DNA from: Candidatus Latescibacterota bacterium
GTDB lineage: Bacteria > Latescibacterota > UBA2968
Reading direction: 5' to 3'
Assembly (NCBI GenBank): GCA_965205975.1
Contig: OZ242195.1
Location: 640,001-704,000, forward strand
Length of the DNA: 64,000 nt
Positions 1-64,000 of the stretch are shown piece after piece. The notes under the pieces were generated by a model. It worked only from the letters and a program-made list of their open reading frames with translations, searched no databases and had not been told where the DNA came from. Position numbers and translations under genes: made by a program. Every line of letters starts with the position of its first letter. The stretch's first letter is position 1.

Positions 1-575
1 CGGACTTCGCCATCGCCTGCGCCTGAAATTCCCTCATAATAATCTATCTCGATCCCTTCCATATTTGACCGGGTGATGATATTGACCACGCCCCCAATAG
101 CGTCTGATCCATATACGGCCGAGGCGCCATCCTTGAGTACTTCGACGCGTTCGATGATTGAAGTGGGAATAGAATTGAGATCAACGGATGAATTTGCGCC
201 TGTTCCGCCCGGCACGAAGCGACGTCCGTTGACCAATACCAGGGTGCGATTAGAGCCGAGTCCGCGCAGATTAATCCGGGTAGAGCCATCGCCGCCGTTG
301 TTGGACTGGGTATTGGTCGCGTTGGACTGTACTGTGAGTGTTTGTAGCACATCTCCAATGGAGGTCAATCCCCGCGCTTTGATTTCGTCACCAGATAGGA
401 CGACGACTGGCGCAGGCGAAAGACTCTCCGCGCTTTTGATGCGGGATCCGGTTATGACGATTTCTTCAAATTCGTAGATTTTCGGCTCGTCGGGTGATTC
501 TTTAACATCCTCTGCGAACACTTCCGCAATAAAGACAATGGCCACTATTTGCCAGAATATGTGCTTCACACTCAT
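1..575 (-). CDS. TonB-dependent receptor, N-terminal part (runs off window edge)
   Basis: Manual translation MSVKHIFWQ...EEIVITGSRI...INLRGLGSNRTLVLVNGRR...IERVEVLKDGASAVYGSDAIGGVVNIITR: signal peptide, TonB box, plug motifs. Confidence 0.92.
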   Translation of the reverse strand, partial: MSVKHIFWQIVAIVFIAEVFAEDVKESPDEPKIYEFEEIVITGSRIKSAESLSPAPVVVLSGDEIKARGLTSIGDVLQTLTVQSNATNTQSNNGGDGSTRINLRGLGSNRTLVLVNGRRFVPGGTGANSSVDLNSIPTSIIERVEVLKDGASAVYGSDAIGGVVNIITRSNMEGIEIDYYEGISGAGDGEV

Positions 576-606
576 CCGTACCTCGCGATTGGAGAATGGC
601 AATTTT

Positions 607-1563
607 TTAGTCACTGCACGCATACGCATCAAATACAATTTGTAAATCGCGTTTTGCGCGTGCAAAATCCGAATATGGCTGACGCGAGCGGTTTTGAAGG
701 CAGGATAGAAAATCAGCCATCATCGCGCGATAGCCCATCAAATCTTTCAGACCCGGCCAGAGAATCCGAAAGCCTTTCTGGGGTTTGCGTATGTAAATGC
801 CGTTGCTTTCAAAAACAATGCGTCCGTGCGTGCCTTCGATATAAGAGTGCTGAAAAACGCCTTTTGTCAAACTGGGCGTTTGCCACGAGTAATGCAATTC
901 GGCAATTGCGCTGGTGGGATAGACCATTCTCACGACAGATTCGCGCTCTGGTGTACTGCTGGAAGAGCCAGGGAATATCGCTTCGACCTGTTCGGGCACT
1001 GCATCGAATAGATCTGAAATCAGGGCGATAAAATGAATACCGCCTTCCAACAAAGCACCATGAGCACTTTTCCAACCCTGCGCTTGCTGCGTTGTGAGCT
1101 TTTTTACTGAGACTGAACGCATTTCGCCGATATCGCCCTGGGCGACCATGTGCTTGATGTACGATAGCGAGGGTTTGTAATAATAATTCTCCGCGATCAT
1201 CAATAGGGGGGGCTCGACCCGTTCCAGCACGGTCTCTATTTCGACAATTTCCTCTGGCGAGATGCACATCGGTTTTTCGACGAGTACGGCTTTGCCAACT
1301 TCTAATAGTGCGATTATCTGGTCTTTGTGATGCTCTGGCGGGGAAGCGATCACCACGGCGTCCACATCGCTTTCCAATACGGCGTTCAGGTCGTCAAAAA
1401 TGCCCTGCCCCTTAAATTTGAGATTGAACTTGTACGCGCTTACCCGCGAGCGACTGCAAAAATACAACGCCGCCCGCCATTGCAAATTTTTCGCATGAAG
1501 CGCGCCGATATTCCCACACCCCAGGATGCAGATACGCGGTTTTTTATACGTCAGATGATCCAT
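607..1563 (-). CDS. Gfo/Idh/MocA family oxidoreductase
   Basis: GCGNIG Rossmann motif, EKP motif. Confidence 0.9.
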   Translation of the reverse strand: MDHLTYKKPRICILGCGNIGALHAKNLQWRAALYFCSRSRVSAYKFNLKFKGQGIFDDLNAVLESDVDAVVIASPPEHHKDQIIALLEVGKAVLVEKPMCISPEEIVEIETVLERVEPPLLMIAENYYYKPSLSYIKHMVAQGDIGEMRSVSVKKLTTQQAQGWKSAHGALLEGGIHFIALISDLFDAVPEQVEAIFPGSSSSTPERESVVRMVYPTSAIAELHYSWQTPSLTKGVFQHSYIEGTHGRIVFESNGIYIRKPQKGFRILWPGLKDLMGYRAMMADFLSCLQNRSRQPYSDFARAKRDLQIVFDAYACSD

Positions 1564-1606
1564 TTTGATTATTCTGCATCTAATAATAGAGAATCATATC
1601 GTTTTT

Positions 1607-1873
1607 TCATTCCTCAAAGCTGAGGACAGGAACAGAAATATGGGGGGCGGTTGCTATCAGCTCGGGATTATTCAGTAAATCTGCGATGCGAGATCCCACA
1701 TCGGCTCGTACGACTTTGGCCCCACATTGAGGACAAACACCCGCCAGAACATTGTCTAAAACGATGAGTTCATCGCGTATCCAAAAGTCCTGTTTAATAC
1801 GCTGTTCTTGCAGGGGTGTGTCACAGTTTTCACATTCCCCATAATCGTAAGCATTCATGTTGTCTTTGGGCAT
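1607..1873 (-). CDS. YgiT-type zinc finger / MqsA-like antitoxin (orphan)
   Basis: CENC...DNVLAGVCPQCG; start set at ATG 1873 after GGAG. Confidence 0.75.
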   Translation of the reverse strand: MPKDNMNAYDYGECENCDTPLQEQRIKQDFWIRDELIVLDNVLAGVCPQCGAKVVRADVGSRIADLLNNPELIATAPHISVPVLSFEE

Positions 1874-1905
1874 GGCTACTCCAGAGCGTAAGTTGATACT
1901 GACGT

Positions 1906-2295
1906 TTATACCCGTTGACCAAGGCAATAGCACAACTCGTCCGGTGCTATTACGAAGAATATGCGGAAGGATTTATCGCCGTGTTGCTCGATCCGATAAT
2001 TGGGATCGTCATTTTGCAGTCCATTGTTCTTTAATTCATTGAAGGCGACTTCGACATCATCCACTTCAAAAAAACAACCCTCCTGGGTCGGATCACCACC
2101 ATTTTCCGCCAGGCCGATCTGGATATCGTCTCTTGCGAGTATCGCGGATTTACAGGGCGCATCCTGCCGAGATACGACCTGAAATCCCATGATTGTTTCG
2201 TAAAAAGGGATGGCTTCTTCCAGGTTCTCAACGGGAAGGTTCAGGGCGTCTTGCAAGTAGGGCGAGGCTGTTTTGAATACAGCTTTGGTTTTCAT
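1906..2295 (-). CDS. VOC/glyoxalase family protein
   Basis: LPVENLEEAIPFY...FEVDDVE...F.VIAPD pattern. Confidence 0.85.
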   Translation of the reverse strand: MKTKAVFKTASPYLQDALNLPVENLEEAIPFYETIMGFQVVSRQDAPCKSAILARDDIQIGLAENGGDPTQEGCFFEVDDVEVAFNELKNNGLQNDDPNYRIEQHGDKSFRIFFVIAPDELCYCLGQRV

Positions 2296-2317
2296 ATTTA
2301 CTCCTTAAAGATTGAGC

Positions 2318-2725
2318 CTATACGAATACTGAGGGTGAGACACCAAATCGTTCGGACAAAGCACGTATTTGACGGATGTTCAGCTTCCGCTTTTCAGCCA
2401 AAATCTCCGAAACCACTCCTTGCGAACCCACCTCCGGCAAATCCGATTGAGTCAATTCATGCTCTTCCATGAGGAAACGAAGTGAATCCACACCCTCTGA
2501 CCTGGGCAGGGGATGGTGTTGTTCCTCCCATGTGTGGACAACAGTACCCAGTGTATCAAGTAAAGAATAAAGAGGGTGCCGCTCATCAGTACCCACCTCA
2601 TCTATCAGGTCGTTGAGACGCTCTATTGCAAGATCATAGTCCCGTTCGTCCTGAATCATGAGTAAAGGACTCACTTGCGTCCAGGATCGCTGAAGCTGTG
2701 GAGTAATAACACTCATGTCATCCAT
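2318..2725 (-). CDS. higA: HigA-type antitoxin (XRE HTH)
   Basis: LRFLMEEHELTQSDLPEVGSQGVVSEIL..KRKLNIRQIRALSERF; overlaps higB. Confidence 0.88.
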   Translation of the reverse strand: MDDMSVITPQLQRSWTQVSPLLMIQDERDYDLAIERLNDLIDEVGTDERHPLYSLLDTLGTVVHTWEEQHHPLPRSEGVDSLRFLMEEHELTQSDLPEVGSQGVVSEILAEKRKLNIRQIRALSERFGVSPSVFV

Positions 2726-3000
2726 CCTCCACGGTCATAAGCCTGATGTGTAAGTACATGACGGATATATACTTTGCCACGGTTGAAGTGGATCGAGACA
2801 ATCAGGCGGTACTTGTTGCCGGCGATGTTAAACACGACAAAATCTCCGACTTTATCAGCAGAAGGAAAGGTGCGGCGCAATGCCGAGAAACTATGGAACT
2901 GCGTCTGGCTCATGATTTTGAACCAGCGATTCAGAGGCTTCTCGCTGTCGGGATGCTGTGTCCAAAACACTCGCAGGGCTTTGCGTGAGATGATGTGCAT
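2713..3000 (-). CDS. higB: HigB-type mRNA interferase toxin
   Basis: MHIISRKAL...FPSADKVG..VFNIAGNKYRLI...VYIRHVLTH.AYD. Confidence 0.9.
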   Translation of the reverse strand: MHIISRKALRVFWTQHPDSEKPLNRWFKIMSQTQFHSFSALRRTFPSADKVGDFVVFNIAGNKYRLIVSIHFNRGKVYIRHVLTHQAYDRGGWMT

Positions 3001-3009
3001 TTATACAAG

Positions 3010-3038
3010 AATATATCGCAAGTTGAGATATATTGCAA
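3010..3038 (-). promoter_or_regulatory. higBA promoter with overlapping palindromic operator
   Basis: Minus strand TTGCAA-N17-TATATT, 9 nt before ATG (near-leaderless); inverted repeat AATATATCGCAA-G-TTGAGATATATT at 3010-3034. Confidence 0.75.
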
Positions 3039-3050
3039 ATGGGTGACGGT

Positions 3051-4892
3051 TCATTCCTTCTTCTGGGCTGTGGCTCGAGCTGCCCCTTCCGCAGGCACAT
3101 CCACCCTCACAGTCAGCACGGTATATCTCTCATCATCACTGGTGGTCGCCGCTTCCAGGCGCCCGCCATCCACCGCGTACGCTCCTGCTGGTAGCACGAA
3201 TGTTACCCGGCAATCGGGAAATGCGTCTTCCAGCATATTGGTCACTTTGGCTGTCACTTTGTCGTGTTTCCCGTCGTTACCCGGATCGTATGTCACGCTA
3301 AGTGGCGGTGGCCCTGCTCGATCAAAAGGAATGGGAGCAATAGCATCTCCTCGATAGGTCGCCGATGCCACCTGGCCGTTTTTAAACCGCACCACCCGAA
3401 AACTGCTGCTATTGCTTTTGCCTACCCGCGTGGCGGGTGTGGCTCCAATGGTCATCACCTTTTCCCCGGGGCCATGCGCGTCGTGGATCAGCTTTACCTT
3501 ATGCCTATCCAGAAATGCCTTTACCGGCGCATTGTGCTCGAATGCGTTGATTATCTTGATCTTAGCCTTCGCTCGCGAGGATAGAAGCGCGTTGGCTTGC
3601 GATAGATCCACATGCCAGGGATGCCCGAAATTCAGGATGCATAGGTCTGGCCCATAATCGATGATTCCCACCTGATCTCCATACCACCTCTCGTGTCCAT
3701 AAAATTGGTGATTGCCGAATGTAATCGCATAGGGCATCTCCAGTACCAGATGTGATCCCGAGATATACGCCGGATTCACCGCATTGCTAATCAGGACCAT
3801 ATCCGGTGCGATCAGGTTGGCGATCTCCGCCAACCGTCTCTCGTATTCCGCCTGGTACTGTCCCTGCGTGTCCAGGTGTCCAAACGTCATAAATACAGGA
3901 TCTTTCGGATAGTCTCGAACGACGTACACGCTTCTGGGAGACTGTCGCGTGAAATCTCCCCGCGAGCCGGACACCTTTATCGATAGATCGTATAACCCAG
4001 ATGGTATGTCTTGAGGTAGCTTTACCGTACCTTCCCGATCATAATAAAACTTCGCACTCGGATCTTCCTCAAATACTACCGTGCGTGAGATCGTAGCTGG
4101 CCCAACCCGACGCGACAACTTCACTTGCCCTATCGTGTGATCGTAGGCTCCCAACCGCACCCGAAAAGATTCACCGGGCCGACGGATGTCAGGGTGTCCC
4201 AGAACCGGGAATCGGAAGCCTTGTGGTCTGGTCTCCGGGTTCCGGTGTAGATATACTGGTGGCAGGCGCGTTTCTTTTCCTTTTTGAATCGCGATTTCTT
4301 CAATTTTTTGAGACTCCCATCCGTACGCAATCAATTCCAGTGAATATCCCTTTCCTGCGGGTAGGCCGGTCAGACGACACGCCCCCGATAACCAATTCCG
4401 CACCAGCGTGTTCCGCACTATTTGACCACTCTGGCTTACCACCGCTCGTGCATCTACGAAGAATCCATTTTCCTCTCCGTTGAGTACAAATGACAGTTCT
4501 CCAGAATGCTCCGCCAGGACTCGAAAACCAGATATACGGCAGCCCGTCTCGCCCCTGTTCTGACGATGCTCAACGCGTACCCGGTGTTTCCCCAGAGTCA
4601 GTCCCCTCGCCAGTACCACCTCTCGTGCTTCGTTACCCGGATACAAGATGCGCGGACTCCCATCATCTACTGTCACAATTAGTTTTCCCAGAGAAGGTTT
4701 TCCGTAGGCTGACACGGCGTGCTGGCCCAGACCAAGTGCCACTCCTGTACCGGTAAATTCAAACGTCAAGGCAGCACCATTATCCTCCGTCTCCAGACAG
4801 GCTGTCCTGGCATACCGGAACTGGCTCTCCCACCACGTACCTGATTGCAGCACACGGACTGTATCCAGAGCAGATATCCACTCCTTACTCAT
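3051..4892 (-). CDS. Hypothetical multidomain protein (beta-sandwich domains plus possible degenerate metallophosphoesterase-like domain)
   Basis: 613-aa ORF; GNH and DAHG motifs in C-terminal half. Confidence 0.6.
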   Translation of the reverse strand: MSKEWISALDTVRVLQSGTWWESQFRYARTACLETEDNGAALTFEFTGTGVALGLGQHAVSAYGKPSLGKLIVTVDDGSPRILYPGNEAREVVLARGLTLGKHRVRVEHRQNRGETGCRISGFRVLAEHSGELSFVLNGEENGFFVDARAVVSQSGQIVRNTLVRNWLSGACRLTGLPAGKGYSLELIAYGWESQKIEEIAIQKGKETRLPPVYLHRNPETRPQGFRFPVLGHPDIRRPGESFRVRLGAYDHTIGQVKLSRRVGPATISRTVVFEEDPSAKFYYDREGTVKLPQDIPSGLYDLSIKVSGSRGDFTRQSPRSVYVVRDYPKDPVFMTFGHLDTQGQYQAEYERRLAEIANLIAPDMVLISNAVNPAYISGSHLVLEMPYAITFGNHQFYGHERWYGDQVGIIDYGPDLCILNFGHPWHVDLSQANALLSSRAKAKIKIINAFEHNAPVKAFLDRHKVKLIHDAHGPGEKVMTIGATPATRVGKSNSSSFRVVRFKNGQVASATYRGDAIAPIPFDRAGPPPLSVTYDPGNDGKHDKVTAKVTNMLEDAFPDCRVTFVLPAGAYAVDGGRLEAATTSDDERYTVLTVRVDVPAEGAARATAQKKE

Positions 4893-4909
4893 CGGTATTT
4901 ATCCCTCTT

Positions 4910-5803
4910 TTAGACACGCACTTCTCTTGGCACAACATCCAGATCCCACGCCTGCCAGTAGTATTTTACTGGATCGTTCTCGTCCCATTTTTCATACACA
5001 TCTTCCCATGTCAGCCAATTCATATGCGGCTGTAGTGAATCATCTCGAACTGGATGGCTTCGCGGTTGATACCGGTAATCAGATGAAATCCGCAGACGGT
5101 CTGCTGACTCGTTATCGCGTCCCTGATGAATGGTCAGGCTGTGTAAAATAATCACGTCACCGCACATATAGTCGTCGCCGATCCAGACGGAATCCTCTTC
5201 GACGGGAACCTGACGGCCACCTGGTCCCACGCCTTCGAATGTTTCCAGTTTACCTCGCCGGTGCGATCCTCGGGCGACGGCGAGTCCACCGAGTTCTTCT
5301 GGACAGTCACCGCAGGGGATCCATGCTGTCCAGGTTTCGTCCGATCCTCCGATGAAGTAGTTGTCCTGGTGCGGGGGCGTCGAATGGGTATTGGTATTGG
5401 GGAAGACAAGGCGGCAGATGTTTCGGCTGTGCGGGAGTACATGTTCACCGAATAGAACTTCGAACGCCCGAATTAGAGGGGGTTCGAGCGCCAGTGCGTG
5501 AAAGTCTCGAATTTTCAGTACATCACCATAAAATGCCTGCCAGCGCGGGTCTTTGCTCTCGACGACCTGAATGTCGGGGTCTGCAATGCCCTCTGTCAGT
5601 TCGGAGCCGTCCATCAGCCACCCGTGGTCCCGACAGACGTTGAGGATCTGATGTCGGACCTCAATTACACGTTCCGGATCGAGCAGGTTGCGAAAGAACA
5701 GATACCCGTTCTCCTTTGCCTGTTGTCGAAGCTTCTCAGGATTCTGCAACAAATCCGTCGCGTCCTCAAGTGCCTCAATCTGTTTCATCTCAATCATCGC
5801 CAT
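4910..5803 (-). CDS. Phytanoyl-CoA dioxygenase (PhyH) family 2OG-Fe(II) dioxygenase
   Basis: PPHQD...RGSH...H...N...RIS. Confidence 0.9.
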   Translation of the reverse strand: MAMIEMKQIEALEDATDLLQNPEKLRQQAKENGYLFFRNLLDPERVIEVRHQILNVCRDHGWLMDGSELTEGIADPDIQVVESKDPRWQAFYGDVLKIRDFHALALEPPLIRAFEVLFGEHVLPHSRNICRLVFPNTNTHSTPPHQDNYFIGGSDETWTAWIPCGDCPEELGGLAVARGSHRRGKLETFEGVGPGGRQVPVEEDSVWIGDDYMCGDVIILHSLTIHQGRDNESADRLRISSDYRYQPRSHPVRDDSLQPHMNWLTWEDVYEKWDENDPVKYYWQAWDLDVVPREVRV

Positions 5804-5830
5804 TATGATGGTCTCCTTTTTCTGAATGAG

Positions 5831-6199
5831 TCAGGACCCGTACCAGGGATCCAACTCTTGAATTTCGTCTGGTTCAGGCATAGATGGGAATTGGACAGCT
5901 TTTATGGTTTTACGGCCTTCAAGTATTGCTTTGCACAGGCGATGGCCGCCATCCATGAGTGATCCATCTGCATTTAGAATGATAGGATATTTCAGGGAAG
6001 CGTGGTTAATTTTTTTACAATGTCGCGCGATCTCTCTTAGTGTGGGTTTCTTTTGCCCAAACCAGCAATCTTTGTCTAACTCTTTAATTGATGATACTTC
6101 AATTTCAAATGAAGGAAGATCTCTGGACTGTATCCAGAGTTTTTCGGTGTACCACACGAGCCGTTTGCCATCGCGTATTGTACTGTGTTTCTGTGGCAC
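5831..6199 (-). CDS. ParB/Sulfiredoxin-like domain protein
   Basis: YPIIL..DG.LMDGGHRL motif. Confidence 0.7.
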   Translation of the reverse strand: MPQKHSTIRDGKRLVWYTEKLWIQSRDLPSFEIEVSSIKELDKDCWFGQKKPTLREIARHCKKINHASLKYPIILNADGSLMDGGHRLCKAILEGRKTIKAVQFPSMPEPDEIQELDPWYGS

Positions 6200-6212
6200 G
6201 CTTCCTCCTTTT

Positions 6213-6728
6213 TTAAGCCATACTCAGGCTGTATCGAATTTCTCTGCGTTCAACTCCTGCAAGGGGTTCTGATTTTTGTGCGCCATCCGCACTGAATCCA
6301 AATTTTTGATAGAAAGAAATCGCTCTCTGGTTGGTCTCAAGAAGCCAAATTTTTACCATTGAGCAATTCATATCGCGAAGGGCCGTAAGAGATGCCTCCA
6401 TCAGTTTTCGACCAATGCCGCGGTCCCAGAATTCTTCAAGGGCGTAGATTGCATAGACTTCGCCGACGGCGTTTTTATCCAGTCCTTCATCTCGTACGGG
6501 GCCAAAGCTGATGAATGCAACGATCCTTTGCTCTACTTCAGCTACAAGTACTTTGTTGGAGGGGCTGTTGAGGGTCAGGTGCCATTGTTTCTCCCTCTGG
6601 TCAACAGACAAATTATCGAGGATGTCATCGGGCAATTGTCCCTTGTACGCAGCCTGCCATGACCGAACGTGGACCTCAGCCAGGCCTCTGGTATCGTTTT
6701 TGGAAGGTTCTCGGATGATCACTGCCAT
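6213..6728 (-). CDS. GNAT family N-acetyltransferase
   Basis: RGIGRKLM...NQRAISFYQKFGF; start at ATG 6728 after AAGGAG. Confidence 0.9.
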   Translation of the reverse strand: MAVIIREPSKNDTRGLAEVHVRSWQAAYKGQLPDDILDNLSVDQREKQWHLTLNSPSNKVLVAEVEQRIVAFISFGPVRDEGLDKNAVGEVYAIYALEEFWDRGIGRKLMEASLTALRDMNCSMVKIWLLETNQRAISFYQKFGFSADGAQKSEPLAGVERREIRYSLSMA

Positions 6729-6772
6729 GGTTGGAGATCTCCTTAATCTCGAAGTGGCGGATCGCGCTTTCC

Positions 6773-7765
6773 TCATTCTTTGAGCGCGTCTCTTACGGCT
6801 CTGGCGAGTCCAGGGTGCTTCAGCAGGGTACTCAGGCGAGAGATGACGAGATTGCCGCCGCCGTGTTTCAGGGCGATTTCTATCTCTTTGGCAAGGCGTT
6901 CGGGTGTGCGTACGAAGCCAGGCAAGTCGTGAATGCCGATGAAGGAGACAAAGCGGTTGATCTTTGGATTTTCCAGGCGCTTCATTTCGGCGGCTTCCAT
7001 TTCAACGCGTTCGAGTCGCCATTCGGGAGGATAGAACCAGGAGATGGTCTGTGTGCAATAGTCGAGTTTGTATTTGGCGCCAATGTACTCGTCGGGCAGG
7101 AAGTGCGGCCAGACGTGGTTGGTGACAATGGCATTGGGATCTATGGATTTAGCGTGGTCGTAGAGGAGGCGGTGAACGTCAATGAGTGTTTGTTTGGAGA
7201 CTTTTCCCATGATTTCGATATCGGACAGGTCGGGGGTTTGCTCGCGTGTTTCTTTACGGAGGGTTTCACAGCGGTCACAGAAACAGGCGTAGTAGTTGAC
7301 AAAGCCAAAGCCATCGAGGGCGATCCCGTCGGCGATGTCGAGGGCGCGCTCAACCCGTTTCTTGAGTTCGGCTTGCGATTCCGGGTGCTCGAAACAGAGG
7401 GTCGTTCTCGGTAATACGAACGATTGCCAGCGGTAGCTCTCTCCGTGCAACCGGAGCCAGGATTGTCCGGCGATGATGTCCGAGACTTTGTGTTCGAATT
7501 CGCGCATTTTCTGGAGGCAATGCGGATAGGTATTTTCAAAGTCGTCGTCGGAATAGGGGAAGACGGTGGCGATGATCTGAATGTCCCGTTTATGTGCTTG
7601 CGCGACCATTTCAGGCGTGGCGCTATTGGTAATAAGCATGTTGCAGCCAAGGTCCGCCACAAAATCGACGGCTTGTTCGCGTTTGGTGTCGGTTCTAAGA
7701 CGATCGATGGCCCAAACGGCTTTCATAGGGAGATGTCCTTTCTGAAGTTGGGCAACGGTTATCAT
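6773..7765 (-). CDS. Hypothetical protein, possible glycoside-hydrolase-like TIM barrel
   Basis: LCFEHP...DGIALD...CFCDRC pattern. Confidence 0.55.
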   Translation of the reverse strand: MITVAQLQKGHLPMKAVWAIDRLRTDTKREQAVDFVADLGCNMLITNSATPEMVAQAHKRDIQIIATVFPYSDDDFENTYPHCLQKMREFEHKVSDIIAGQSWLRLHGESYRWQSFVLPRTTLCFEHPESQAELKKRVERALDIADGIALDGFGFVNYYACFCDRCETLRKETREQTPDLSDIEIMGKVSKQTLIDVHRLLYDHAKSIDPNAIVTNHVWPHFLPDEYIGAKYKLDYCTQTISWFYPPEWRLERVEMEAAEMKRLENPKINRFVSFIGIHDLPGFVRTPERLAKEIEIALKHGGGNLVISRLSTLLKHPGLARAVRDALKE

Positions 7766-7774
7766 CTGGTTCTG

Positions 7775-8230: not shown

Positions 8231-8260
8231 AATAGATACCTCAAGCGAATCTCACGCTAC

Positions 8261-54760: not shown

Positions 54761-54950
54761 GTTAGCCGATCATGGCGCTTATTTGCGCCGCTGATCAGCA
54801 ATATACTCACGTAGCTTCTCGATCGAGGGAGAATCCACATCCCGCAGCGGTGCACCAGCCGGGTGTTTGTGGAAATTTACCTTTTCGTCCAGTTGGGCTT
54901 CAGCTAGGAAACATGCCGCTTCAGTGTTCTGTAGCGGCATGACGGCTAAC
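54761..54950 (-). mobile_element. Mini cassette-like unit: GTTAGCC - 53-aa ORF (54779-54940) - GGCTAAC
   Basis: Perfectly complementary core/inverse-core heptamers with extended imperfect IR of about 18 bp. Confidence 0.5.
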
Positions 54951-55036
54951 GTCTTCGACTTAAGAAAAAAATACCTGGCTTCGGTTTATACCCCATTTTT
55001 CGATTTACAGCAAGTATTCGTTCATTATTGGCATTA
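54946..55036 (-). pseudogene. C-terminal fragment of GNAT acetyltransferase
   Basis: NANNERILAVNRKMGYKPKPG resembles GNAT motif B; no plausible 5' part. Confidence 0.6.
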
Positions 55037-55588: not shown

Positions 55589-55607
55589 ATAGAAAGACCG
55601 TTTTGAA

Positions 55608-56561
55608 TTACGTTTGAAGCCTTTGAAAAGCCTTAAGAGTTGATGGATCAGTGACTATTTCCCTTGCGGCTTCAATAGTCAACCATTTGGCAGCATAAAA
55701 TTCCTGTAGATCAATGTTGAAATTGCTGCCATCTGTAAGAAGTAAATACCAGATGTCATAATGAGACTGGCAGGGTTGCACGGGATTTTCTATTGGTGTA
55801 ATGGTCAACAAAAACGGTTGTGGTTCAGATTTAAAAAAGTTCCATACTCCCAATTCTTCACCTATCTCACGGTTCAAAGCTGCCAAAAGCGTCTCGTCTT
55901 TATCTATATGACCACCAGGAGAAAGCCAAAGACCAGACTTTTTATGGTGGATGACAAATACCTTTTTGCTCTGGGTATCATAGGGCAGAAAATAGACACA
56001 AAAATGGGTCTCCGGATTTTCATCTCGCGTTGGTTTTCCTTCTTTCACTCTTTGTTTATAGAGAGTATAGGTTTCCCCATTGTCACATATATCACGGTCG
56101 ATAACTTTTGCAATTGATTCTTGTGTTTTCATATTGAAGTTTCTGCTCTTATGATACCTGAATACACGCTTGCCGATACGCACTTTGTTACGCTCAAGAA
56201 ATTTGTAGCCTGCCTGTTTCAGCGTATAGGACTTGTATTTGAACTTGCTACGGAATTGTGGCGGTCGCTTGTTGTCTCTGGCAAAGAATCTCTTATAGCC
56301 AAAGTCTATGCGCTCAATCACATTTTGCAATGCCTGAGACGGTAGCAGACGCCAGTGGGCAAAGCGCGGCGTGTCCTTCAGCTTCTTGAGGTGATTGATC
56401 AGTGTGAACTTACTCGGATACTTGCCAAATCGCTGGTAGTATCGCTTATGTAGTGCGATGAAGTGATTATACACTTCGGCAAAGTCGTTTATCTCATGGT
56501 GGAGATACCGATTGCGGTCACACGTTGAATACAACTTGAATTTGTAGGTCAGGTAGTCCAT
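55608..56561 (-). CDS. In-frame fusion: TnpB N-terminal half (56133-56561) + NUDIX hydrolase (55608-56132)
   Basis: YKFKLY...VYNHF...SQALQ...RFF...PQFRSK..Y.SYT.KQ; then PGGHIDKDETLLAALNREIGEELG. Confidence 0.85.
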   Translation of the reverse strand: MDYLTYKFKLYSTCDRNRYLHHEINDFAEVYNHFIALHKRYYQRFGKYPSKFTLINHLKKLKDTPRFAHWRLLPSQALQNVIERIDFGYKRFFARDNKRPPQFRSKFKYKSYTLKQAGYKFLERNKVRIGKRVFRYHKSRNFNMKTQESIAKVIDRDICDNGETYTLYKQRVKEGKPTRDENPETHFCVYFLPYDTQSKKVFVIHHKKSGLWLSPGGHIDKDETLLAALNREIGEELGVWNFFKSEPQPFLLTITPIENPVQPCQSHYDIWYLLLTDGSNFNIDLQEFYAAKWLTIEAAREIVTDPSTLKAFQRLQT

Positions 56562-56791
56562 TATTCTCTTGTTTTTTGTCGGTTTTAGTTTGTATTTTTA
56601 ATGACTTAAACATAAGTAAAATATATACTTATGTATCGTTTTTGTCAAGCAGAAAGAGCACTTGTGCTAAGCATGTTCCGTGACGATTTTACACGGAAGC
56701 AGAAACAAAATCATAAGCCATTGCAAAACAACGCTCGCCAACTCGCGTCTGCTTCCCACGCCTAAAGGCTGTGGGCTTTACGGGCTATTTG
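56133..56791 (-). mobile_element. IS200/IS605-family element, left part only
   Basis: TTTAT|CAAATAGCCCGTAAAG then hairpin CCCAC-A-GCC-TTTA-GGC-GTGGG (56755-56775); tnpB 5' half; no right end or tnpA. Confidence 0.8.
56610..56648 (-). promoter_or_regulatory. tnpB promoter with palindrome over the -10
   Basis: TTGACA-N17-TATATT; IR ACATAAGTA-N7-TACTTATGT at 56610-56634. Confidence 0.7.
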
Positions 56792-56958
56792 ATAAAGTAA
56801 CAATTTCATATGAATCATTCGGTTCTGAAAAAAGTTTCGATGACCTTCTTGAACTGACTGCAAAGGTCTATGAAGGACTCTCCGCTGACGACATCGACGG
56901 CATTGAGAAGATTGCACACGGCCGTCGCGATTTTTTTGGAGATAGAACAGGTGCTTAA
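56792..56958 (+). pseudogene. 3' half of DUF104/AF2212-like antitoxin gene cut by IS605 insertion
   Basis: KVTISY...DDLLELTAKVYEGLS.DDID.IEKIA..R.DFF*; begins exactly at IS left end; family from recall. Confidence 0.55.
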
Positions 56959-57073
56959 CATTCCCATTCTATCAACTAAACATCGGAAAATCAATTTGAT
57001 AATTCGGCTTGCGAGATGTATTTTCGATTATAGATCTCGCTCTGCTTTAAACCTCCCAAACCGAGGAGAAACC

Positions 57074-58684
57074 ATGTTGCGAGTCAGCGACCCCGACCTG
57101 ATCGCCCACTGGCCGTTCCGGGAAGACCTGAAAGACCATTCCGAAAGCGGTCTGCCCATCCAAAATCACGGTGTTGAAATCGGGGAATCAGGTGGACAAA
57201 GAAGCGCCCAATTCGACGGGGCGGAAACCTTTCTGGAAGTTCCCTGCGACCTGTCTATAGGGACAGGCGATTTTTCATGCGCCGGATGGATCTATACGGA
57301 AGAAACTGAAGTGGTCGGCGATATTCTCAGCCAATTCGATCCGGAAACCCGCCAGGGATGGCAGATTTCGGTCCTCACCAATACCGGAATGACCTCCACT
57401 GCCCAATCGAATTACCGCAACCTCCACTTTGGCATCGACAACGGGCATCTCGGGTCCTGGACCGATTGCGGTCGTCCCGGTCAGGCGGTCAAAATATCTG
57501 CACTTTCAACATTAGGTGGACACCTGTACGCCGGCACCTTTGAGAATGGCGAAGAAGAGGTCGGCCACCTGTGGCGCTATGAAGGGGAAAAACGCTGGAC
57601 CGATCTGGGCAATCCAGTCGGATGCAACTCTGTCAACGCCGTCGTCGAATTTCAAGGCGCGCTCTACTGCGCTCTCGGCCGGTATAATAGCATCGGCTCC
57701 GCTCTGGGCGATCCCCTGAACACCACACCCGGTGGCCAGGTTTATCGGGTCGATGCCGATGGTCAATGGACTTTTTGCGGACATCCAGGCATCGAAGACG
57801 CCACACCCGAAGAAACACCCACCACGGGACACAACACGGGCAAAGCCGACAACGCCACCGCGCTCACAGTCTATCAGGGTCGGCTCTACGCCACCAGCCT
57901 CTACCGCGAGGGTGCCTTTGTCTATGATGGCGGCACCACCTGGACGCCCATAGGTCCAGACGTGCGGCTGATGAGTTTCACCGTCTATCGGGACAGGCTC
58001 TACACCCTCGTCAATGGCGGCCCGGTTCTTCGCTACGAAGGCAACGCCGAATGGACCGACTGCGGCTGTCCAGAAACCTCTACCCAGACCTACTCGGCGG
58101 TCACTTTCAAGGGGCAACTCTATGTCGGCACCTGGCCTCAGGGCGAAGTCTATCGATATGACGGCAATACGACCTGGACCTGTCTGGGGCGGGCCGGGTA
58201 CGAACGTGAGATTATGGCGATGGGACTTTACAACGGCAAAGTCTATATCGGCTCGCTCCCAATGGCCAATGTCTGGCGGATGGACGGCAATCGGTTCACA
58301 TTCTTAGAGTCTCTGGACCGCACGTCCGCGCCCCTGCGGCGGGTCTGGTCCATGGCCATTTATGAGGGCCGCCTCTATGCTGGCACCCTGCCGTCTGGAC
58401 ACGTCTATTCGGTCGAAGCCGGAAAAGTCGCCACCTGGGACCGCGCATTTCCCGAAGGATGGCGACACGTAGCCGCTGTCAAGCAGGGCGGCGTTCTGAC
58501 CCTGTACGTCGATGGAATCTCCGTCGCTACAACAGATAGCTTCAATCCAAAACGCTACGACCTCGATCCCAACTGTCCTCTCTTAATCGGCTTTGGTGCC
58601 CACGACTATTTCAAAGGCGCCCTGCGAGACATTCGTATCTATCGCCGGGGCCTCACACAACGGGAAATCCAGCGCCTTCAGTGA
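57074..58684 (+). CDS. LamG/concanavalin-like domain protein with inserted beta-propeller
   Basis: LIAHWPF...FDG; repeated .G.LY.GT blades; WRHVAAV...LYVDG...FKGAL.DIRIY; GAGGAG RBS. Confidence 0.8.
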   Translation: MLRVSDPDLIAHWPFREDLKDHSESGLPIQNHGVEIGESGGQRSAQFDGAETFLEVPCDLSIGTGDFSCAGWIYTEETEVVGDILSQFDPETRQGWQISVLTNTGMTSTAQSNYRNLHFGIDNGHLGSWTDCGRPGQAVKISALSTLGGHLYAGTFENGEEEVGHLWRYEGEKRWTDLGNPVGCNSVNAVVEFQGALYCALGRYNSIGSALGDPLNTTPGGQVYRVDADGQWTFCGHPGIEDATPEETPTTGHNTGKADNATALTVYQGRLYATSLYREGAFVYDGGTTWTPIGPDVRLMSFTVYRDRLYTLVNGGPVLRYEGNAEWTDCGCPETSTQTYSAVTFKGQLYVGTWPQGEVYRYDGNTTWTCLGRAGYEREIMAMGLYNGKVYIGSLPMANVWRMDGNRFTFLESLDRTSAPLRRVWSMAIYEGRLYAGTLPSGHVYSVEAGKVATWDRAFPEGWRHVAAVKQGGVLTLYVDGISVATTDSFNPKRYDLDPNCPLLIGFGAHDYFKGALRDIRIYRRGLTQREIQRLQ

Positions 58685-59682
58685 CGGCTCTTCAGCCACC
58701 AGCGCATGGTATTACTGACCATATCCGCTGCGTCTCGTTGAACCCAATGGCCGCTGCTGGGGATGGTGACGAGTGTGTAGTCTTTGTTGATCCAATTCCA
58801 CGTGTCGCGTAACCCGTCTTTGTCAACAGCCTTGTCTTTCAACCCGTGGAATTGCAATATGGGCATGGTGAGATTGGGCATCTCCAGGCTCTGGCCAGAC
58901 CCCGCAGTTAGACCGCTATAGGCCGCCCGGTAGTAGTCGAGCATGCCCTTGACCGAGGATTGGGAGAACGCATTGATGTAGCGCTGCCGCACTTCGTCTG
59001 AGGCATTACCCACCGAAATACGTGTAAGCACCTCGGGCGAGAACCGTTTTTCGTATCCAGGCGTTTGAAAGTCGGTAATGTATTTAGTATTCCTCTTTTG
59101 CTCTGCCGTCGCGTTACGCAGCACGGTGCCGTAGCCCTTCGGGTGAGTCAGATTGCAGATCACCAGCTTGTTGACGAGTTGCGGATAGTACATGGCGAAC
59201 CGCCACGAAATGGCGCCCCCCCAATCGTGACCAACGAGGGTGACCGAATCGACCGCCAGATCCTTGATTACAGCTTCGACATCCGACATGAGATGGGACA
59301 TGGTGTAGTGTTCCACGCCTTCGGGCTTGCCGCTCTTGTTGTAGGCGCGTGTGTCCATAGCGACGGTCTTATAGCTGTCGGAAAGAGCGGCCATCTGTTC
59401 GCGCCAGGTATACCAAAAATCGGGAAAGCCATGGACAAAGAGAATAACGGGGCCTTCGCCCAGGGTGACGTAGTGGAGTGTCACCCCGTCGTTATCCGTC
59501 TCATGGTGCTCGACGCGGTCAAATACATCTGCCTTGACGTTAGCTATCGGGGATTTGACGGCACCCTTTAGGCGTTCCTGCTGCGCCTGCCCCTGGGCGA
59601 AGAAAATACAGGAGCAAATGACCACCAGTATTGAGCGTGTTATGCGTTGTTTGGTTCGTTGTGATAGTTTCATGGCGTTCAT
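58678..59682 (-). CDS. Alpha/beta hydrolase, epoxide hydrolase family, signal peptide
   Basis: HGFPD, GHDWGG, GHWVQ. Confidence 0.9.
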   Translation of the reverse strand: MNAMKLSQRTKQRITRSILVVICSCIFFAQGQAQQERLKGAVKSPIANVKADVFDRVEHHETDNDGVTLHYVTLGEGPVILFVHGFPDFWYTWREQMAALSDSYKTVAMDTRAYNKSGKPEGVEHYTMSHLMSDVEAVIKDLAVDSVTLVGHDWGGAISWRFAMYYPQLVNKLVICNLTHPKGYGTVLRNATAEQKRNTKYITDFQTPGYEKRFSPEVLTRISVGNASDEVRQRYINAFSQSSVKGMLDYYRAAYSGLTAGSGQSLEMPNLTMPILQFHGLKDKAVDKDGLRDTWNWINKDYTLVTIPSSGHWVQRDAADMVSNTMRWWLKSRH

Positions 59683-59702
59683 CGTTCCAATGGTTTGGGG
59701 GA

Positions 59703-60905
59703 TCAGGCTTTTGATGTTTGTTGGGCTTCACAAGTTTGTTTCCAGACATGGTGTTCTGCCATCATCTTTTCAACTTTTTCAGGGAAGGTGGCGCGCAGGT
59801 CGCGTTGTTCATCGGGATCGGTGCTCAGATCAAACAGGCCATCTGGTTTGCCGTCTGTGGCGTGGAGTTTCAGATTGCCCTCACGGACCGCGTCCTCTGT
59901 TCTATACGTCCAGTGCAGGGTGCGGTCCAGAGGTTGCTCTTTGCCTTTGAAAAGGGGCCACACGTTTTGGGCGTCAATGATGCGGTCGTCGGGCATGGTT
60001 GCACCAGCGAGAGCGGCGAATGTGGCGTAGAGATCGTAGTGTACCCAGGGGGTATGGATTTTTGTATTTGGAGCGATTTTTCCCGGCCAGACCGCGTTGC
60101 AGATGACTCTTAGCGAACGCTCCCAGAGAGTTCGGCCATACCCATTGGTTCGGCTGCCTCCCTGGTCGCTTAAGAAGACGATAAGCGTGTTTTCTGCAAT
60201 ACCGGCATGGTGTACTGCATCCAGCACGCGCCCTACGCACAGGTCCAGATATTCGACCATATACTGGTAGTTTACCATTGGGTCATCGCTGTGATAGTAT
60301 CCGGGTGGGGCCTGATAGGGGCCGTGTGGGGCATAAAAGGGGAGATTCAGATAGAAGGGCTCGGGTTTTTGGGATTGGTGGTTGATAAATTTGATGGCTT
60401 CATCCGTAAACAGAGTGTCGAAGTAACCCTCGTCCGCTATGGGTTCCAGGCCGCGAAAAAAGTGGCTTTTCATGTCGCGGTTGTAAAGGTGGGTGTAATA
60501 GTCGGCATGGCCTGCGTTGCTGCCGTAAAATTCATGAAAGCCGTGGTGTAACGGATTAAATTTTGCGGCATATCCCAGGTTCCATTTTCCAAACAGCCCT
60601 GTTGTGTATCCGGCATTTCGCAAAAGTCTGGCTATAGAGACTTCCCGGAGTGAGAGTCCGGATTCCGGGTCATCTGGACGTGTCTGTGAGTTGATGCCAA
60701 CCCGATATGGATGTCTGCCTGTGTTCCAGGCGCAACGCGCTGGTGAACACAGCGGGGTTGCGATCAGGCAGTTGTCGAATACAACGCCCTTGCTCGCCAT
60801 TGTGTTCAATCTGGGGGTGTCGAATATCCCTTCGCCATAATAATCGACTGCTTCGCAACCGAGGTTGTCGGCGACCATGAAGATGATATTTGGGCGGTTC
60901 TTCAT
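59703..60905 (-). CDS. Arylsulfatase-like sulfatase
   Basis: CSPAR...TG, GKWNLG, APHGP. Confidence 0.92.
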   Translation of the reverse strand: MKNRPNIIFMVADNLGCEAVDYYGEGIFDTPRLNTMASKGVVFDNCLIATPLCSPARCAWNTGRHPYRVGINSQTRPDDPESGLSLREVSIARLLRNAGYTTGLFGKWNLGYAAKFNPLHHGFHEFYGSNAGHADYYTHLYNRDMKSHFFRGLEPIADEGYFDTLFTDEAIKFINHQSQKPEPFYLNLPFYAPHGPYQAPPGYYHSDDPMVNYQYMVEYLDLCVGRVLDAVHHAGIAENTLIVFLSDQGGSRTNGYGRTLWERSLRVICNAVWPGKIAPNTKIHTPWVHYDLYATFAALAGATMPDDRIIDAQNVWPLFKGKEQPLDRTLHWTYRTEDAVREGNLKLHATDGKPDGLFDLSTDPDEQRDLRATFPEKVEKMMAEHHVWKQTCEAQQTSKA

Positions 60906-60965
60906 TGATATTTCCTTAATTGATTGAAAAATATAAACTTATGGTTGTGGAGATCAGAGGCAATA

Positions 60966-62387
60966 TCAGTTCTGGAGCTCGGAATGGGTCGCATTGGCCA
61001 GTTCGCGCAGTACATTGACCGCGAGGAGGACATCCTCCCTGCGACAGTCGAATTGCCCGACCTGGAAGCGAATGACGAACTGTCCTTCATGGATCGTCTG
61101 CGTCAGGTAGATTCGGCCGTCATCATTGACCGCGCGGAGCAGGCGTTCGGTGGCGTCGTTGGCATTCTCACCGTTGGGGGCGTACTGGAACGTGAAGAGA
61201 GAGAGGTGGCAGTCCGTTGTCAGGCGAAAGCCGTCCAGCGATGCGATCGCGGCGGCGGCCTCTTCAGCCCAGGCAATATGGTTCCGGATGCGCTGTCGGA
61301 GGTCTTTGAGACCGTGGGCGCGGAGCAGGAACCAGAGCTTGAGGGCTCGGAATCGGCGCCCCAGGGGGATCGTCCACTCACTGTAATTGGTGATCTCGGT
61401 TTGACCGAGGGTCTGGAGGTAATCCGGACGGATGCCGAGGGTGCGAACCTGTGGTTCCGGGTCCGCGAGAAACTGGATTGAGCAGTCGAACTGCGCACCG
61501 AGCCACTTGTGGGGATTAAAGGCGATGCTGTCGGCTTCCTCGACGCCCTCCCACAACTTCCGTAGCTCGGGACAGATCATCGCGGAACCGGCCCACGCGG
61601 CGTCGATGTGGACGTAGAGATCGTGCTCTCGTGCCACTTCGATGGTCTGGCGCACATGGTCGGATGCGCCAATCGATGTGCCTCCAACACAGAGGACGAC
61701 ACCAGCCGGGAGAAAACCCGCGGCGCGATCTGCGTTGATTGCCCGACGGAGTGCCTCCGGGTCGAGTGCCCAGGAACCATCGGTCGGGACTTTGACCAGA
61801 TTCCGTTGGCCGATACCGGCGATGCGGATCGCCTTGTCAACCGACGAGTGGGTCTCTGGCGATGCGTAGATCCGGAGTTGTTTCTCTCCCGCTATTCCAG
61901 AATCGATTCCCCGCCAGCCAAGTGTGCGCTCGCGCATCGTCAGTACGGCGCAGACATTTGCCGACGTTGCCGTATCCTGAATAACGCCCTGGAATTCTTC
62001 TGGTAGCCCGAGTGCCTGGCGCATCCAGCCGGTCATCCGAGTCTCAATTTCCGTAGCTGCGGGTGAGGTCTGCCAGAGCATGCATTGGGCAGCCATGACC
62101 GCCGTCAAATTTTCGGCGATCATCGAAACCGGCGCAGCGTTAGCGCTAAAGTACGCAAAAAAGCGCCGGTGTTGCCAGTGCGTCATGCCGTCGGGTACGA
62201 TGCGCTCAAAGTCGGCGAAAATCGTCTCCATGCCAGCCGGCTCTTCTGGTGGCGATAGAGGCAGCATCGCAGCGATCTCGCCCGGTTCGGTCTGCGCTCG
62301 TACGGGCCGCTCTTCGAGCGTGGTCAGGTATTCGGCACCCCACCGTGCCGCTCGTTCAGCCCATTGAAAGTAGTCTTCTCGTTTCAA
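60966..62387 (-). CDS. PLP-dependent aromatic-L-amino-acid decarboxylase family
   Basis: THWQH..F.AYF, SPAATE.E, HIDAAWAG, NPHKW, LGRRFRALKLW. Confidence 0.93.
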   Translation of the reverse strand: MKREDYFQWAERAARWGAEYLTTLEERPVRAQTEPGEIAAMLPLSPPEEPAGMETIFADFERIVPDGMTHWQHRRFFAYFSANAAPVSMIAENLTAVMAAQCMLWQTSPAATEIETRMTGWMRQALGLPEEFQGVIQDTATSANVCAVLTMRERTLGWRGIDSGIAGEKQLRIYASPETHSSVDKAIRIAGIGQRNLVKVPTDGSWALDPEALRRAINADRAAGFLPAGVVLCVGGTSIGASDHVRQTIEVAREHDLYVHIDAAWAGSAMICPELRKLWEGVEEADSIAFNPHKWLGAQFDCSIQFLADPEPQVRTLGIRPDYLQTLGQTEITNYSEWTIPLGRRFRALKLWFLLRAHGLKDLRQRIRNHIAWAEEAAAAIASLDGFRLTTDCHLSLFTFQYAPNGENANDATERLLRAVNDDGRIYLTQTIHEGQFVIRFQVGQFDCRREDVLLAVNVLRELANATHSELQN

Positions 62388-62421
62388 TGCATTGCGTCCA
62401 GGTTTTTAGAAATCCAGTTCT

Positions 62422-63399
62422 TCAAAGGTAATCGCTGACGTCCATTTCAGGATATGCGTTCTTTATCAGTTCAACGGAGGTGGGTGTGTACATTGCGTCA
62501 CCGGGTTTCGGCCAGCCGAAGAGACTGCGAACCCTCGATGTCGTTTTTCCCAAAAAGGGTTTCAAGCGCCGAATCACTTCAGCTTCCCTTTTTCCGGTCG
62601 ATGTCCATGGCATGGTGTCTCTGCGTCCTATTGAAAAGAAGATAACGGCACGTTGCCTGTCCTTGTCTGCAAAAGGTTGTGCTGCGTGTGGCGTGTGTCC
62701 ACTGTAGAAGAGAACGCTGCCAGCTTTCCCGGTGATTGAGACGGGTTCCTGCGCGTGAAGAATTTTGCGGATATCGGCAAAGCGGTAGGAGTGAGGCACC
62801 TTGCGGATGTCGCCAAAGCCCAGGCCGTCGTCCTCAATCACACGCAAGATATCGCCCATTTTGTCGTGTACTCCTGGGACCAACCGAACAGGCGCGCAAT
62901 CTTCATCAATATCGTCCAGAAAGACCCAGGCCTGAATATGTCCATACCGCTGCCAATCTGGGTGAGGGGGAATAAAGGGTTTGGCCCAATCCAGGTGAAA
63001 TTCGATTTCCGGCTTCGTTGGGGCTTTTCTATCTATTCTGCCGTTTCGGATATAGACGTAACCGTGGTGGTAGTGTATATCAGGCGTATCCAGAAGCTGT
63101 TCCAGAGCATCCAGAAAAGGATCGTGTTCCAGGACCTGGTCTATGACCTCTACCCCTGTTGGAATGTCACAGAATTCCGCTCTGGGGCCGCCCATCCCGA
63201 GACCTGCTCCGGGCAGGCGTAGCTGATCCTCAAGGTCAGGGTTGGCCTTCAGTTCGGCAATGAACCCGGAAAAAGACTTTCCATAAGCGTTTTGTTCCGC
63301 GGTCTCAAGCGTCTCTGACAATTGGCCGGGTGAAAACAGATCCGGGACCAAGAGGTAGCCTTCTGTTTGATAAAACTCATACTGCTCTTGTGTCAGCAT
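62422..63399 (-). CDS. PhyH family dioxygenase
   Basis: FHLD, LDD, VPG.H, G.AGSV, TPH. Confidence 0.82.
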   Translation of the reverse strand: MLTQEQYEFYQTEGYLLVPDLFSPGQLSETLETAEQNAYGKSFSGFIAELKANPDLEDQLRLPGAGLGMGGPRAEFCDIPTGVEVIDQVLEHDPFLDALEQLLDTPDIHYHHGYVYIRNGRIDRKAPTKPEIEFHLDWAKPFIPPHPDWQRYGHIQAWVFLDDIDEDCAPVRLVPGVHDKMGDILRVIEDDGLGFGDIRKVPHSYRFADIRKILHAQEPVSITGKAGSVLFYSGHTPHAAQPFADKDRQRAVIFFSIGRRDTMPWTSTGKREAEVIRRLKPFLGKTTSRVRSLFGWPKPGDAMYTPTSVELIKNAYPEMDVSDYL

Positions 63400-63423
63400 T
63401 GTGGATCTCCGTTAATAAATCGC

Positions 63424-64000
63424 CTAAATTTCATCGTCATCCAGAGCGCGTTGTCCTTCAAACGGTCCCCAGTGAATACGCGCTCTGGTTCTTCTATCGC
63501 TCTTGTAAATCTCTGGATCATAATCCGGGTTTACCTTCGGGAATCGCGCCTCGACCAGTTCGAGATAGCGCATCATCTCATCGTAGAGTTTCTGGTGTGT
63601 TTCCGGATTCTGCTTTGCAATATTGGTAACCTCGCCAATGTCGCCAGAAAGGTCGAACAACATCGGGATATCCGGTCGTTCGTAAAAATGGATCACCTTG
63701 GATGAACCAGAAATAATGACCGAATGCGGTACAGAATTCCGATAATGGGGATAATGGAAATAGAGATAGCGATTTAGAAAGGCATCGTCCGGCTCTTTCC
63801 CCGCCATGTAATCCGCGAGGCTGACACCGTCGATATTCTGCAATTTTTCCGAGTCGCCACCAGCCCAATCGACGAAGGTGGGTAAGAAATCATAGTTGAT
63901 CACGTTGCCGGTAAAAGCTGAACCAGGTTTGATCCCGGGACCTTTGACAATCATAGGTACCCGGATGCCTCCATCCCACAACCACCACTTTGTTGCGTGT
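63424..64000 (-). CDS. Sulfatase, C-terminal part (runs off window edge)
   Basis: [26 protein letters not shown]. Confidence 0.88.

Follow-up and report, generated by a model that had tools for sequence, protein, structure and literature searches.

Why should 64,000 nucleotides of a bacterial chromosome hold dozens of unrelated genes, almost all on one strand, with no recombinase among them? The stretch in question (hereafter the window, meaning its whole length) is genome position 640001-704000 of the single-contig, 5.56-Mb complete chromosome of a Latescibacterota bacterium which we take to be sponge-associated. A first-pass annotation, made from the letters alone, had inferred an orientation-specific platform that captures single genes and trims their flanks, and had offered two explanations for it, an eroded superintegron or an undescribed mechanism. 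Comparison with relatives (genomes are cited by G-numbers and loci by L-numbers) leads us to think that the window is probably the distal, oldest and eroded arm of a sedentary chromosomal integron which has lost its integrase and its recognisable sites. The attC and attI remnants of relatives, together with a platform, support the first of those explanations, while trimming on capture did not hold up.

Genes were called with a purpose-built hexamer model rather than Prodigal (A-numbers denote families that this genome has, x-numbers those which were at first called in relatives alone). The array occupies 607..63999 on the minus strand, which carries 61 of the 68 called genes (58 of 65 in a stricter, confident set); only 1.8% of 70-gene windows genome-wide are equally one-sided, which bears out the co-orientation first claimed. 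The run exceeds the window, reaching from about -9400 to +71700 in window coordinates, and as GC skew puts the origin at about 4156 kb and the terminus at about 1481 kb, it is transcribed head-on to replication. The four host genes reported on the plus strand were found, with an IS630-like pair (DDE_3/HTH) inside one of them. Pfam searches of 76 window proteins returned the mixture of unrelated neighbours that had been described (GNAT, NUDIX, VOC, methyltransferase, PhyH, sulfatase, AAC(3)-like and HigB, with others), and about 10 gene fragments, where about 9 had been claimed, match genes that are intact in congeners (ten genomes of 91.6-94.6% median identity, 100 kb from each).

Other features that had been read as signs of gene accretion proved less telling. 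Codon usage of the window is in the lowest 0.2% of genome windows, among the most atypical regions, but abrupt changes from gene to gene are not a special property of it, the spread of GC content at third codon positions (GC3) lying at the 50th percentile genome-wide and the GC3 change between neighbours only in the top 13%. Spacers, supposed to be notably short, have a median of 35.5 bp against 29 bp genome-wide. Clear terminators had been reported as absent, but positions 1-20000, the part scanned, hold 26 terminator-like sites compared to 19.6 ± 4.5 in shuffles, and scarcity of terminators is uninformative. A search for a dedicated antiterminator found only one NusG (Rho is present), a direct-repeat search of the window and an Rfam search at gathering score gave nothing relevant, and none of the 467 intergenic repeat elements of the genome falls within the window.

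One account would be that plain operon organisation, in a genome whose co-oriented runs are long, has produced the array, or else that the assembly is at fault. Of the 4580 genes, 1280 belong to twenty-one co-oriented segments (one strand having a share of at least 87.5% over 40 genes) and 79% of neighbouring gene pairs share a strand, with no leading-strand bias (a share of 50.9%), so that the comparison of strand bias which the first-pass annotation had called for, made here with the whole genome, shows a window that is unusually one-sided but not unique. Against this account, the array is syntenic across the ten congeners, though patchy in gene content, and as these are ten independent assemblies a chimera is excluded and was rejected; the codon usage is atypical, two control regions of core genes seem, as judged by eye, to have less dense gene-sized turnover and the orthologous arrays contain attC and attI remnants. 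Ordinary architecture or artefact is thus largely refuted and we regard it as very improbable.

Recombinase, attI-like and attC sites in relatives

There is no integrase and no intact attC in the window, as first noted, and no attI either, and nothing in this genome matches the IntI model TIGR02249 over its cut-off. Looking beyond position 64000 for a recombinase, as had been suggested, revealed a platform with a deleted integrase 147 kb beyond the window, on the side of the array's 5' end. This likely platform remnant (genome 851258-855657, on the array strand) consists of a conserved UvrB/C-motif gene, inserted genes, the 3' tail of an integrase and a truncated attI-like site; the 158-bp tail and truncated attI are at 851.3-851.4 kb and the upstream platform gene is at 854.8-855.7 kb. 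The platform gene is present in 21 of 21 genus genomes, a fixed chromosomal platform such as sedentary chromosomal integrons have, and integrase or attI pieces lie near it in G000, G003, G005, G006, G007, G016, G020 and G010. Platform and array keep the same strand and a fixed order in 8 of 10 congeners.

A recombinase of this lineage survives in two of the 21 genus genomes (G005 and G010, at 55-58% identity), and there it reads in the same direction as the cassettes. G005 alone keeps it at full length, 376 amino acids (L451 1228-2358); that of G010 has an internal in-frame deletion. The G005 protein has about 95 extra N-terminal residues with no Pfam match at E 0.01, so that a HARP domain is not confirmed, scores 214.2 on TIGR02249 (cut-off 265) and scores 215.7 on the archaeal XerA model NF040815 (cut-off 220). 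In G236, G185, G175 and G199 a tyrosine recombinase, also below the TIGR02249 cut-off, stands head-to-head beside attC clusters, and none of five class genomes has a protein over that cut-off. The catalytic-domain insertion specific to IntI is absent from the G010, G185 and G236 proteins and present in the canonical IntI of G125. By its position this recombinase would occupy the role of IntI, yet by sequence it fails two IntI tests, the insertion and the TIGR02249 score. At 1e-45, TIGR02249 found canonical IntI genes in 2 of 53 genomes of the order (L211 and L213 of G125, L212 of G023) and missed the lineage integrase; G125 also has short environmental-type attC sites near 2174-2178 kb.

The attI-like site adjoins the integrases of G010, G005 and G039. 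It is conserved up to G|TT and differs directly after, which is the behaviour expected of attI. The pattern was met at 9 of 459 loci searched (two of the nine being the same G004 site), and four of the ten congeners (G004, G019, G020 and G006) have it inside the orthologous array, in the 5' zone. Family x203 stands directly after attI in G020, but in G006 and G019, where x252 comes first, it stands after another gene's attC; this shift fits the prediction of insertion at attI.

The attC sites of the lineage were first met as single cases in flanks of rare genes. A near-complete attC-like site follows x127, complementary 9-nt core and inverse-core sequences surround x195 and x128 (2 of 145 families, with 0.12 expected and 1 in 300 shuffles), and a 92-nt attC site lies between x173 and x195 in G016. 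A 20-nt right-arm motif from this G016 site recurs in 41 of 151 phylum genomes, as same-strand clusters at gene spacing, with 21 matches in G236; the attC family extends across the class. There, 11 aligned repeat copies occupy 12.3 kb, about one per gene, beside the head-to-head integrase, and the genes (methyltransferases, NUDIX, an aminoglycoside-adenylyltransferase-like gene, GrpB, LysE) resemble the window cargo. The parts of an integron (a recombinase, an attI-like site and, for each co-oriented gene, an attC) come together in G236, G010 and G005, except that no attI was found in G236 and that G005 has only one attC match. G236 also has large intact attC arrays (L447-L449) of at least three attC subtypes, and more attC clusters lie at 1038-1080 kb and at 2743-2747 kb, distant from its integrase at 2061 kb.

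A sequence model built from 22 attC of G236 and the G010 platform only (R1) gave 10 matches in 50 congener stretches, in four of the ten congener arrays and all on the array strand. These four orthologous arrays (G016, G006, G004 and G010), with 2-4 matches each, have the two or more recognisable attC that define an attC cluster without an integron-integrase (CALIN). Genome-wide, R1 finds attC in 16 of 20 congeners, most densely behind the platform. All three intact attC sites that were folded have a long terminal stem, that of G010 being a long hairpin which pairs both ends of the site (z -3.1 against shuffles), whereas the G016 array site has lost this fold and RNAalifold gave no consensus pairs.

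Searches not founded on the lineage's own sites found little. Of two tools built on 79 environmental attC, a matrix and a profile, neither detected more than x127, and generic attC pattern scans were negative, with a fold filter that also missed the G125 positive controls; a relaxed pattern found two G125 sites and missed the attC of the genus. Because the right spacer of the genus attC is longer, the negatives of the pattern scans say nothing about it. A scan for core/inverse-core pairs gave 13 on each strand, being strand-symmetric by construction. The attC arms had 0, 0, 0 and 2 matches in viral and plasmid sequences, and a protein search with x195 found only distant GNATs.

Turnover of the array among ten congeners

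Shared genes are out of order in 137 of 642 cases in the 5' third of the array, 61 of 1051 in the middle and 28 of 997 in the 3' third (21, 6 and 3%; these pairs are not independent). The first-pass annotation had held that conserved gene order, a similar strand bias genome-wide and uniform taxonomy and codon usage, or else a chimeric assembly, would speak against gene accretion; in the middle and 3' thirds most of the order is indeed kept (3-6% of shared genes displaced) and long runs do occur genome-wide, but synteny excludes the chimera. The most shuffled part is a 5' hypervariable zone at 45067..59682 on the minus strand, whose orthologues contain the attI-like copies of G004, G019, G020 and G006 and the best-kept attC, in G016, G010 and G006; no attI-like or attC site is left in this zone in our genome. 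That the 5' end is shuffled most and has the best-kept attC fits the youngest DNA being near attI. Orientation is kept throughout, only three of 244 families occurring both ways, and these three appear transposase-like by reading of their sequences.

Could an undescribed machine have captured bare open reading frames singly, in a fixed orientation, and trimmed them on entry? The breakpoints do favour gene ends: among 122 distinct clean junctions, 61 left ends are at a stop codon and 45 right ends at a ribosome-binding site (RBS) or start, with about 4% expected; a near-precise insert of 1081 bp sits in a 22-bp spacer of G006; and 31 of 39 genes found in a single genome are co-oriented with the array. 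Yet 47 of the 122 junctions cut inside genes, no motif is common to the junctions, and microhomology of at least 4 bp is seen at 26 where 2.2 are expected (the range at deletions being 0-10 bp). Spacers at the same site also erode by degrees across species, with lengths of 497, 138, 133, 121 and 47 bp between A75 and A76 and of 622, 342, 19, 18 and 6 bp between A85 and A87, which suggests that short spacers are end points of deletion and not products of precise capture; with the lack of a junction motif, this makes the supposed trimming a later deletion. The young inserts x195, x128, x127 and x234 have attC halves or donor flanks, and known integron parts already explain the orientation, and so we give such a machine hardly any credence.

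A different alternative is an accessory hotspot that needs no integrase, in which the cassettes were made elsewhere (at the 851-kb platform or in other bacteria) and imported as blocks without an integron ever having worked here. Transformation, recombination between homologous flanking genes, and duplication followed by loss would have brought them in, and selection for expression would maintain their co-orientation. All 21 genus genomes examined have an intact ComEC, and this one has DprA. Some genes are 97-99% identical across clades whose species average 92%, and gene trees vary. Dollo parsimony over A36-A87 puts 72 of 98 families at the root, where individual genomes hold 39-60; this excess and the near-identical genes indicate that loss and interspecies exchange both act. 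Remnants of duplicated genes, with an intact copy elsewhere in the array, are always array-oriented (3 of the 32 listed are genes split by insertion sequences (IS)), an MsrP gene pair described below was likely relocated, and similar churn is seen at genome 790-810 kb and 2958-2978 kb.

Such processes have precedents. The integrase-free hotspots of horizontal gene transfer in Oliveira et al. 2017 (PMC5635113, as far as its text was available) likewise show much turnover between conserved anchors, lack mobile-element proteins, and have competence genes and near-identical genes in different species; but the word "orientation" is absent from that paper's main text, and the orthologues of the window show attC and attI remnants. 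Tandem duplication with differential loss, as in the SNAP (selection during niche adaptation) model of Brandis and Hughes 2020 (PMC7055797, in the part available), also changes order without inversion and leaves duplicated-gene remnants in the same orientation, except that the events in our array span few genes and not large chromosome segments. What the hotspot explanation does not account for is that attI-like copies inside the array precede different first cassettes, that shuffling is graded from 5' to 3' with the best-kept attC at the 5' end, and that strand and order relative to the platform are fixed in most congeners. It is unlikely, though clearly a better candidate than the capture machine.

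Proposed history and comparison with known systems

If the window is an eroded integron arm, its history may have run as follows. It would have started with a tyrosine recombinase without the IntI insertion, beside an attI-like site and an array with one attC per gene, as relatives have now, and this enzyme would have inserted cassettes in one orientation at G|TT, both at the 851-855 kb platform and at attI copies in the 5' zone. Loss of the integrase, which is gone here and intact in one of 21 genus genomes, would have left attC remnants in four of ten congener arrays and none in ours. Deletions with 0-10 bp of microhomology remove genes and wear the spacers down stepwise; selection would halt them at the stop codon and RBS, and since a head-on array has its attC bottom strand on the lagging template, its orientation would favour the loss of hairpins; this minority orientation favours attC folding and so may explain why attC were lost fast. 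The order changes without inversion and the same-orientation remnants would stem from tandem duplication with differential loss and from homologous exchange, which shuffle genes and keep their orientation, and both processes, the duplication being local and the exchange taking place among sister species, probably reshaped the array. Genes that never were cassettes would have filled in, being retained mainly if co-oriented with read-through transcription.

This history resembles that of sedentary integrons (Loot et al. 2017, PMC5371416, as described in the part available) in having a recombinase and attI platform beside a conserved gene, co-oriented single-gene cassettes with a related attC family, the youngest and most shuffled DNA near attI, and a cargo of GNAT, NUDIX, methyltransferase and toxin-antitoxin genes. 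It differs in that the lineage recombinase has no IntI insertion and scores 214 where the cut-off is 265, that within this genus the recombinase points the same way as the cassettes (it is head-to-head in G236, G185, G175 and G199), and that the array is head-on, with its attC erased in this genome and large catabolic genes mixed in. As complete integrons are defined by Cury et al. 2016 (PMC4889954, in the part available), the window is not a member, having neither integrase nor attC. It shares with the CALIN of the same paper a cassette-type array far from an integrase, but as at least two recognisable attC are needed there and the window has none, it would be one stage more decayed. The CALIN origins listed in that text include loss of intI and rearrangement away from it, and such origins are also treated in the available part of PMC8618304. 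Off-site cassette insertion at attG, as reported in the accessible part of bioRxiv 2022.09.11.507474, could explain scattered ex-cassettes but not attI copies.

Several observations weigh against an eroded integron. Model R1 finds no attC in the window (best E 0.28), none in 21 stretches of this genome and none genome-wide (150 candidates scored per genome), and only 8-nt inverse-core (R'') remnants are seen in the window. Two of the three intact attC sites in relatives fold not clearly better than shuffles (z -1.6 and -1.1), evidence of cassette origin extends to about 15 of 149 families, and no enrichment was seen with a matrix of full half-sites made from environmental attC. Octamers like R'' are enriched among rare families only, following 5.4 of 78 (1.6% genome-wide, p 0.009), as compared to 0.1 of 35 common families. 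G016 has the platform inverted and G019 has it at a distance of 1.1 Mb, and between window and platform lies a block with plus-strand bias (about 712-750 kb). In the available part of PMC5371416, the attC bottom strand lies on the template of the leading strand in 25 of 30 sedentary integrons (a trend that is not absolute), opposite to the orientation here, and integron arrays oriented as the window is held at most 22 cassettes. Finally, similar runs exist in Poribacteria, where the lineage attC model matched none of 12 stretches, so that genes can be co-oriented in the absence of this attC family.

The Poribacteria runs (G042 and G066; L168-L170, L208-L209) are shorter, co-oriented and patchy, their shared genes are shuffled without inversion and a few R''-like octamers lie past their stops. 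Single genes are shared with the window at 63-85% identity (A61, A63, A54, A58 and A65). A gene order common to both had been hinted at by two gene pairs but failed in 11 regions and was rejected.

A bolder form of the integron explanation, that a class-wide family of integrons with an insertion-less recombinase built an array on the 200-kb scale in this lineage, large catabolic genes included, so that most of the window and a run at genome 750-851 kb would be domesticated cassettes, seems to us rather doubtful. That run (L149, L150, L460), the longest co-oriented run of the genome, lies directly behind the platform remnant; five congeners show it patchy and shuffled, it abounds in sulfatase-like and PhyH-like genes, and it had no attC match in the stretches tested. 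In the sister family there are one-strand runs of 120-220 kb with homologues of window genes and attC matches (G128 C1 at about 1451-1671 kb, G039 at 4638-4758 kb, G025 C5 at 2210-2360 kb and G129 at 4559-4731 kb), which suggests similar giant eroded arrays there.

Should this bolder form be right, such genomes would hold many fossil integrons in the guise of long one-strand runs of unrelated genes, their sites erased by deletion. The probable eroded arm itself closes a natural series from intact integron (the platforms of G236, G005 and G010) through partly eroded arrays (G016, G006, G004 and G010) to no detectable site (the window), by which it can be tested how a cassette turns into an ordinary gene of the chromosome. 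An insertion-less recombinase heads attC arrays across a bacterial class, and if it is active, surveys by IntI signature would undercount integrons and misfile such arrays as integrase-less. We found no published account of such a recombinase or eroded array in a literature search thin on subscription journals and limited to main texts, and the available part of a paper on Latescibacterota and sponges (PMC12993501) has no mention of integron, horizontal, operon or synteny.

Individual genes and a tRNA-Sec-like RNA

Several window genes (all on the minus strand unless stated) can be related to attC sites one by one. The AAA_33 kinase-like gene A73 (11902..12387) has an 8-nt R'' remnant 10 nt past its stop, and its locus in G010 a longer attC remnant (model match of 21.4 bits, E 2.8e-4, in L109). 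Two GNAT genes are likely ex-cassettes: A61 (22139..22603), whose homologue in G029 has an attC left half about 30 nt past its stop (L172 91-133, 31.6 bits), and A56 (25305..26075), for which 85% identical DNA lies directly behind an attC in G236 (E 3.6e-7), with no attC seen in the 280 bp past that homologue. A 90% identical homologue of the small gene A66 (18080..18334) ends a run of 10 attC sites in G029, as does the match of the A30 remnant; A66 is at a second position in G009 and G006, and G019 keeps a scrap of A68 there, which is the footprint of tandem duplication with differential loss. Homologues of A60 (GNAT) and A59 (AAC(3)-like; together 22621..23932), of the beta-lactamase-fold gene A54 (26915..28039; between attC matches in G128 and G028) and of A63 and A72 lie, in other genera, within attC-bearing regions and on the same strand as the attC, a weaker relation, of proximity only. 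A remnant of x123 (47793..47900), the 3' part of a lost gene, is followed by an R''-like octamer. Outside the array, an isolated codon-atypical gene at genome 4067101-4067974 is bracketed by a perfect 10-nt core/inverse-core pair and is likely a lone ex-cassette.

Other genes have no such ties. The first-pass annotation had set sulfatases, MsrP and TonB receptors apart from typical cassette cargo; neither the MsrP pair nor the DUF1552/PSD operon has cassette evidence, and probably many of the sulfatases have none either. The pair (A70-A71, 13264..15222, an MsrP-like gene and its upstream partner) is at a different conserved locus in two outgroup genomes and was likely relocated into the array; a 9-bp tandem repeat at 14061-14137 inside the MsrP-like gene encodes a proline/glutamine-rich linker. 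The plus-strand sulfatase at 35779..38545 is split by the IS630-like element at 37079-38330, an insertion found there in this genome only among 11. Also confined to this one of the 11 is an in-frame fusion of a NUDIX gene (55608..56561) to a foreign N-terminal half without a Pfam match, which by its resemblance we presume to be TnpB-like and of IS200/IS605 origin; upstream of it, 42 bp match an insertion located at window -4870 to -5160.

The tRNA noted in the array at 50063..50168 (minus strand) is real but unusual. ARAGORN misses it, and the Rfam tRNA-Sec model scores 34.6 bits at 50066-50168, under its cut-off of 47; the normal tRNA-Sec of this genome is at 3425281. Folds and alignment show an 8-bp acceptor, a 4-bp T stem, Sec-like D and variable arms, G73, a CCA end and an 8-nt anticodon loop. 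The RNA is identical over 127-128 nt in G008, G009 and G010 against a background of 93-94%, has compensatory D-arm changes in G006 and is damaged in G016 and G015. It is a candidate (8/4) allo-tRNA, which possibly reads four bases. With the (8/4) allo-tRNAs of Mukai et al. (PMC5389517, in the part available) it has in common the Sec-like D arm, long variable arm, 8/4 branch and G discriminator, and both are near toxin-antitoxin-type genes; it differs in its 8-nt anticodon loop and weak anticodon stem, and Latescibacterota are not among the hosts named in that part of the text. Elsewhere in the chromosome, a CRISPR-like repeat-spacer array lies at about 19-26 kb.

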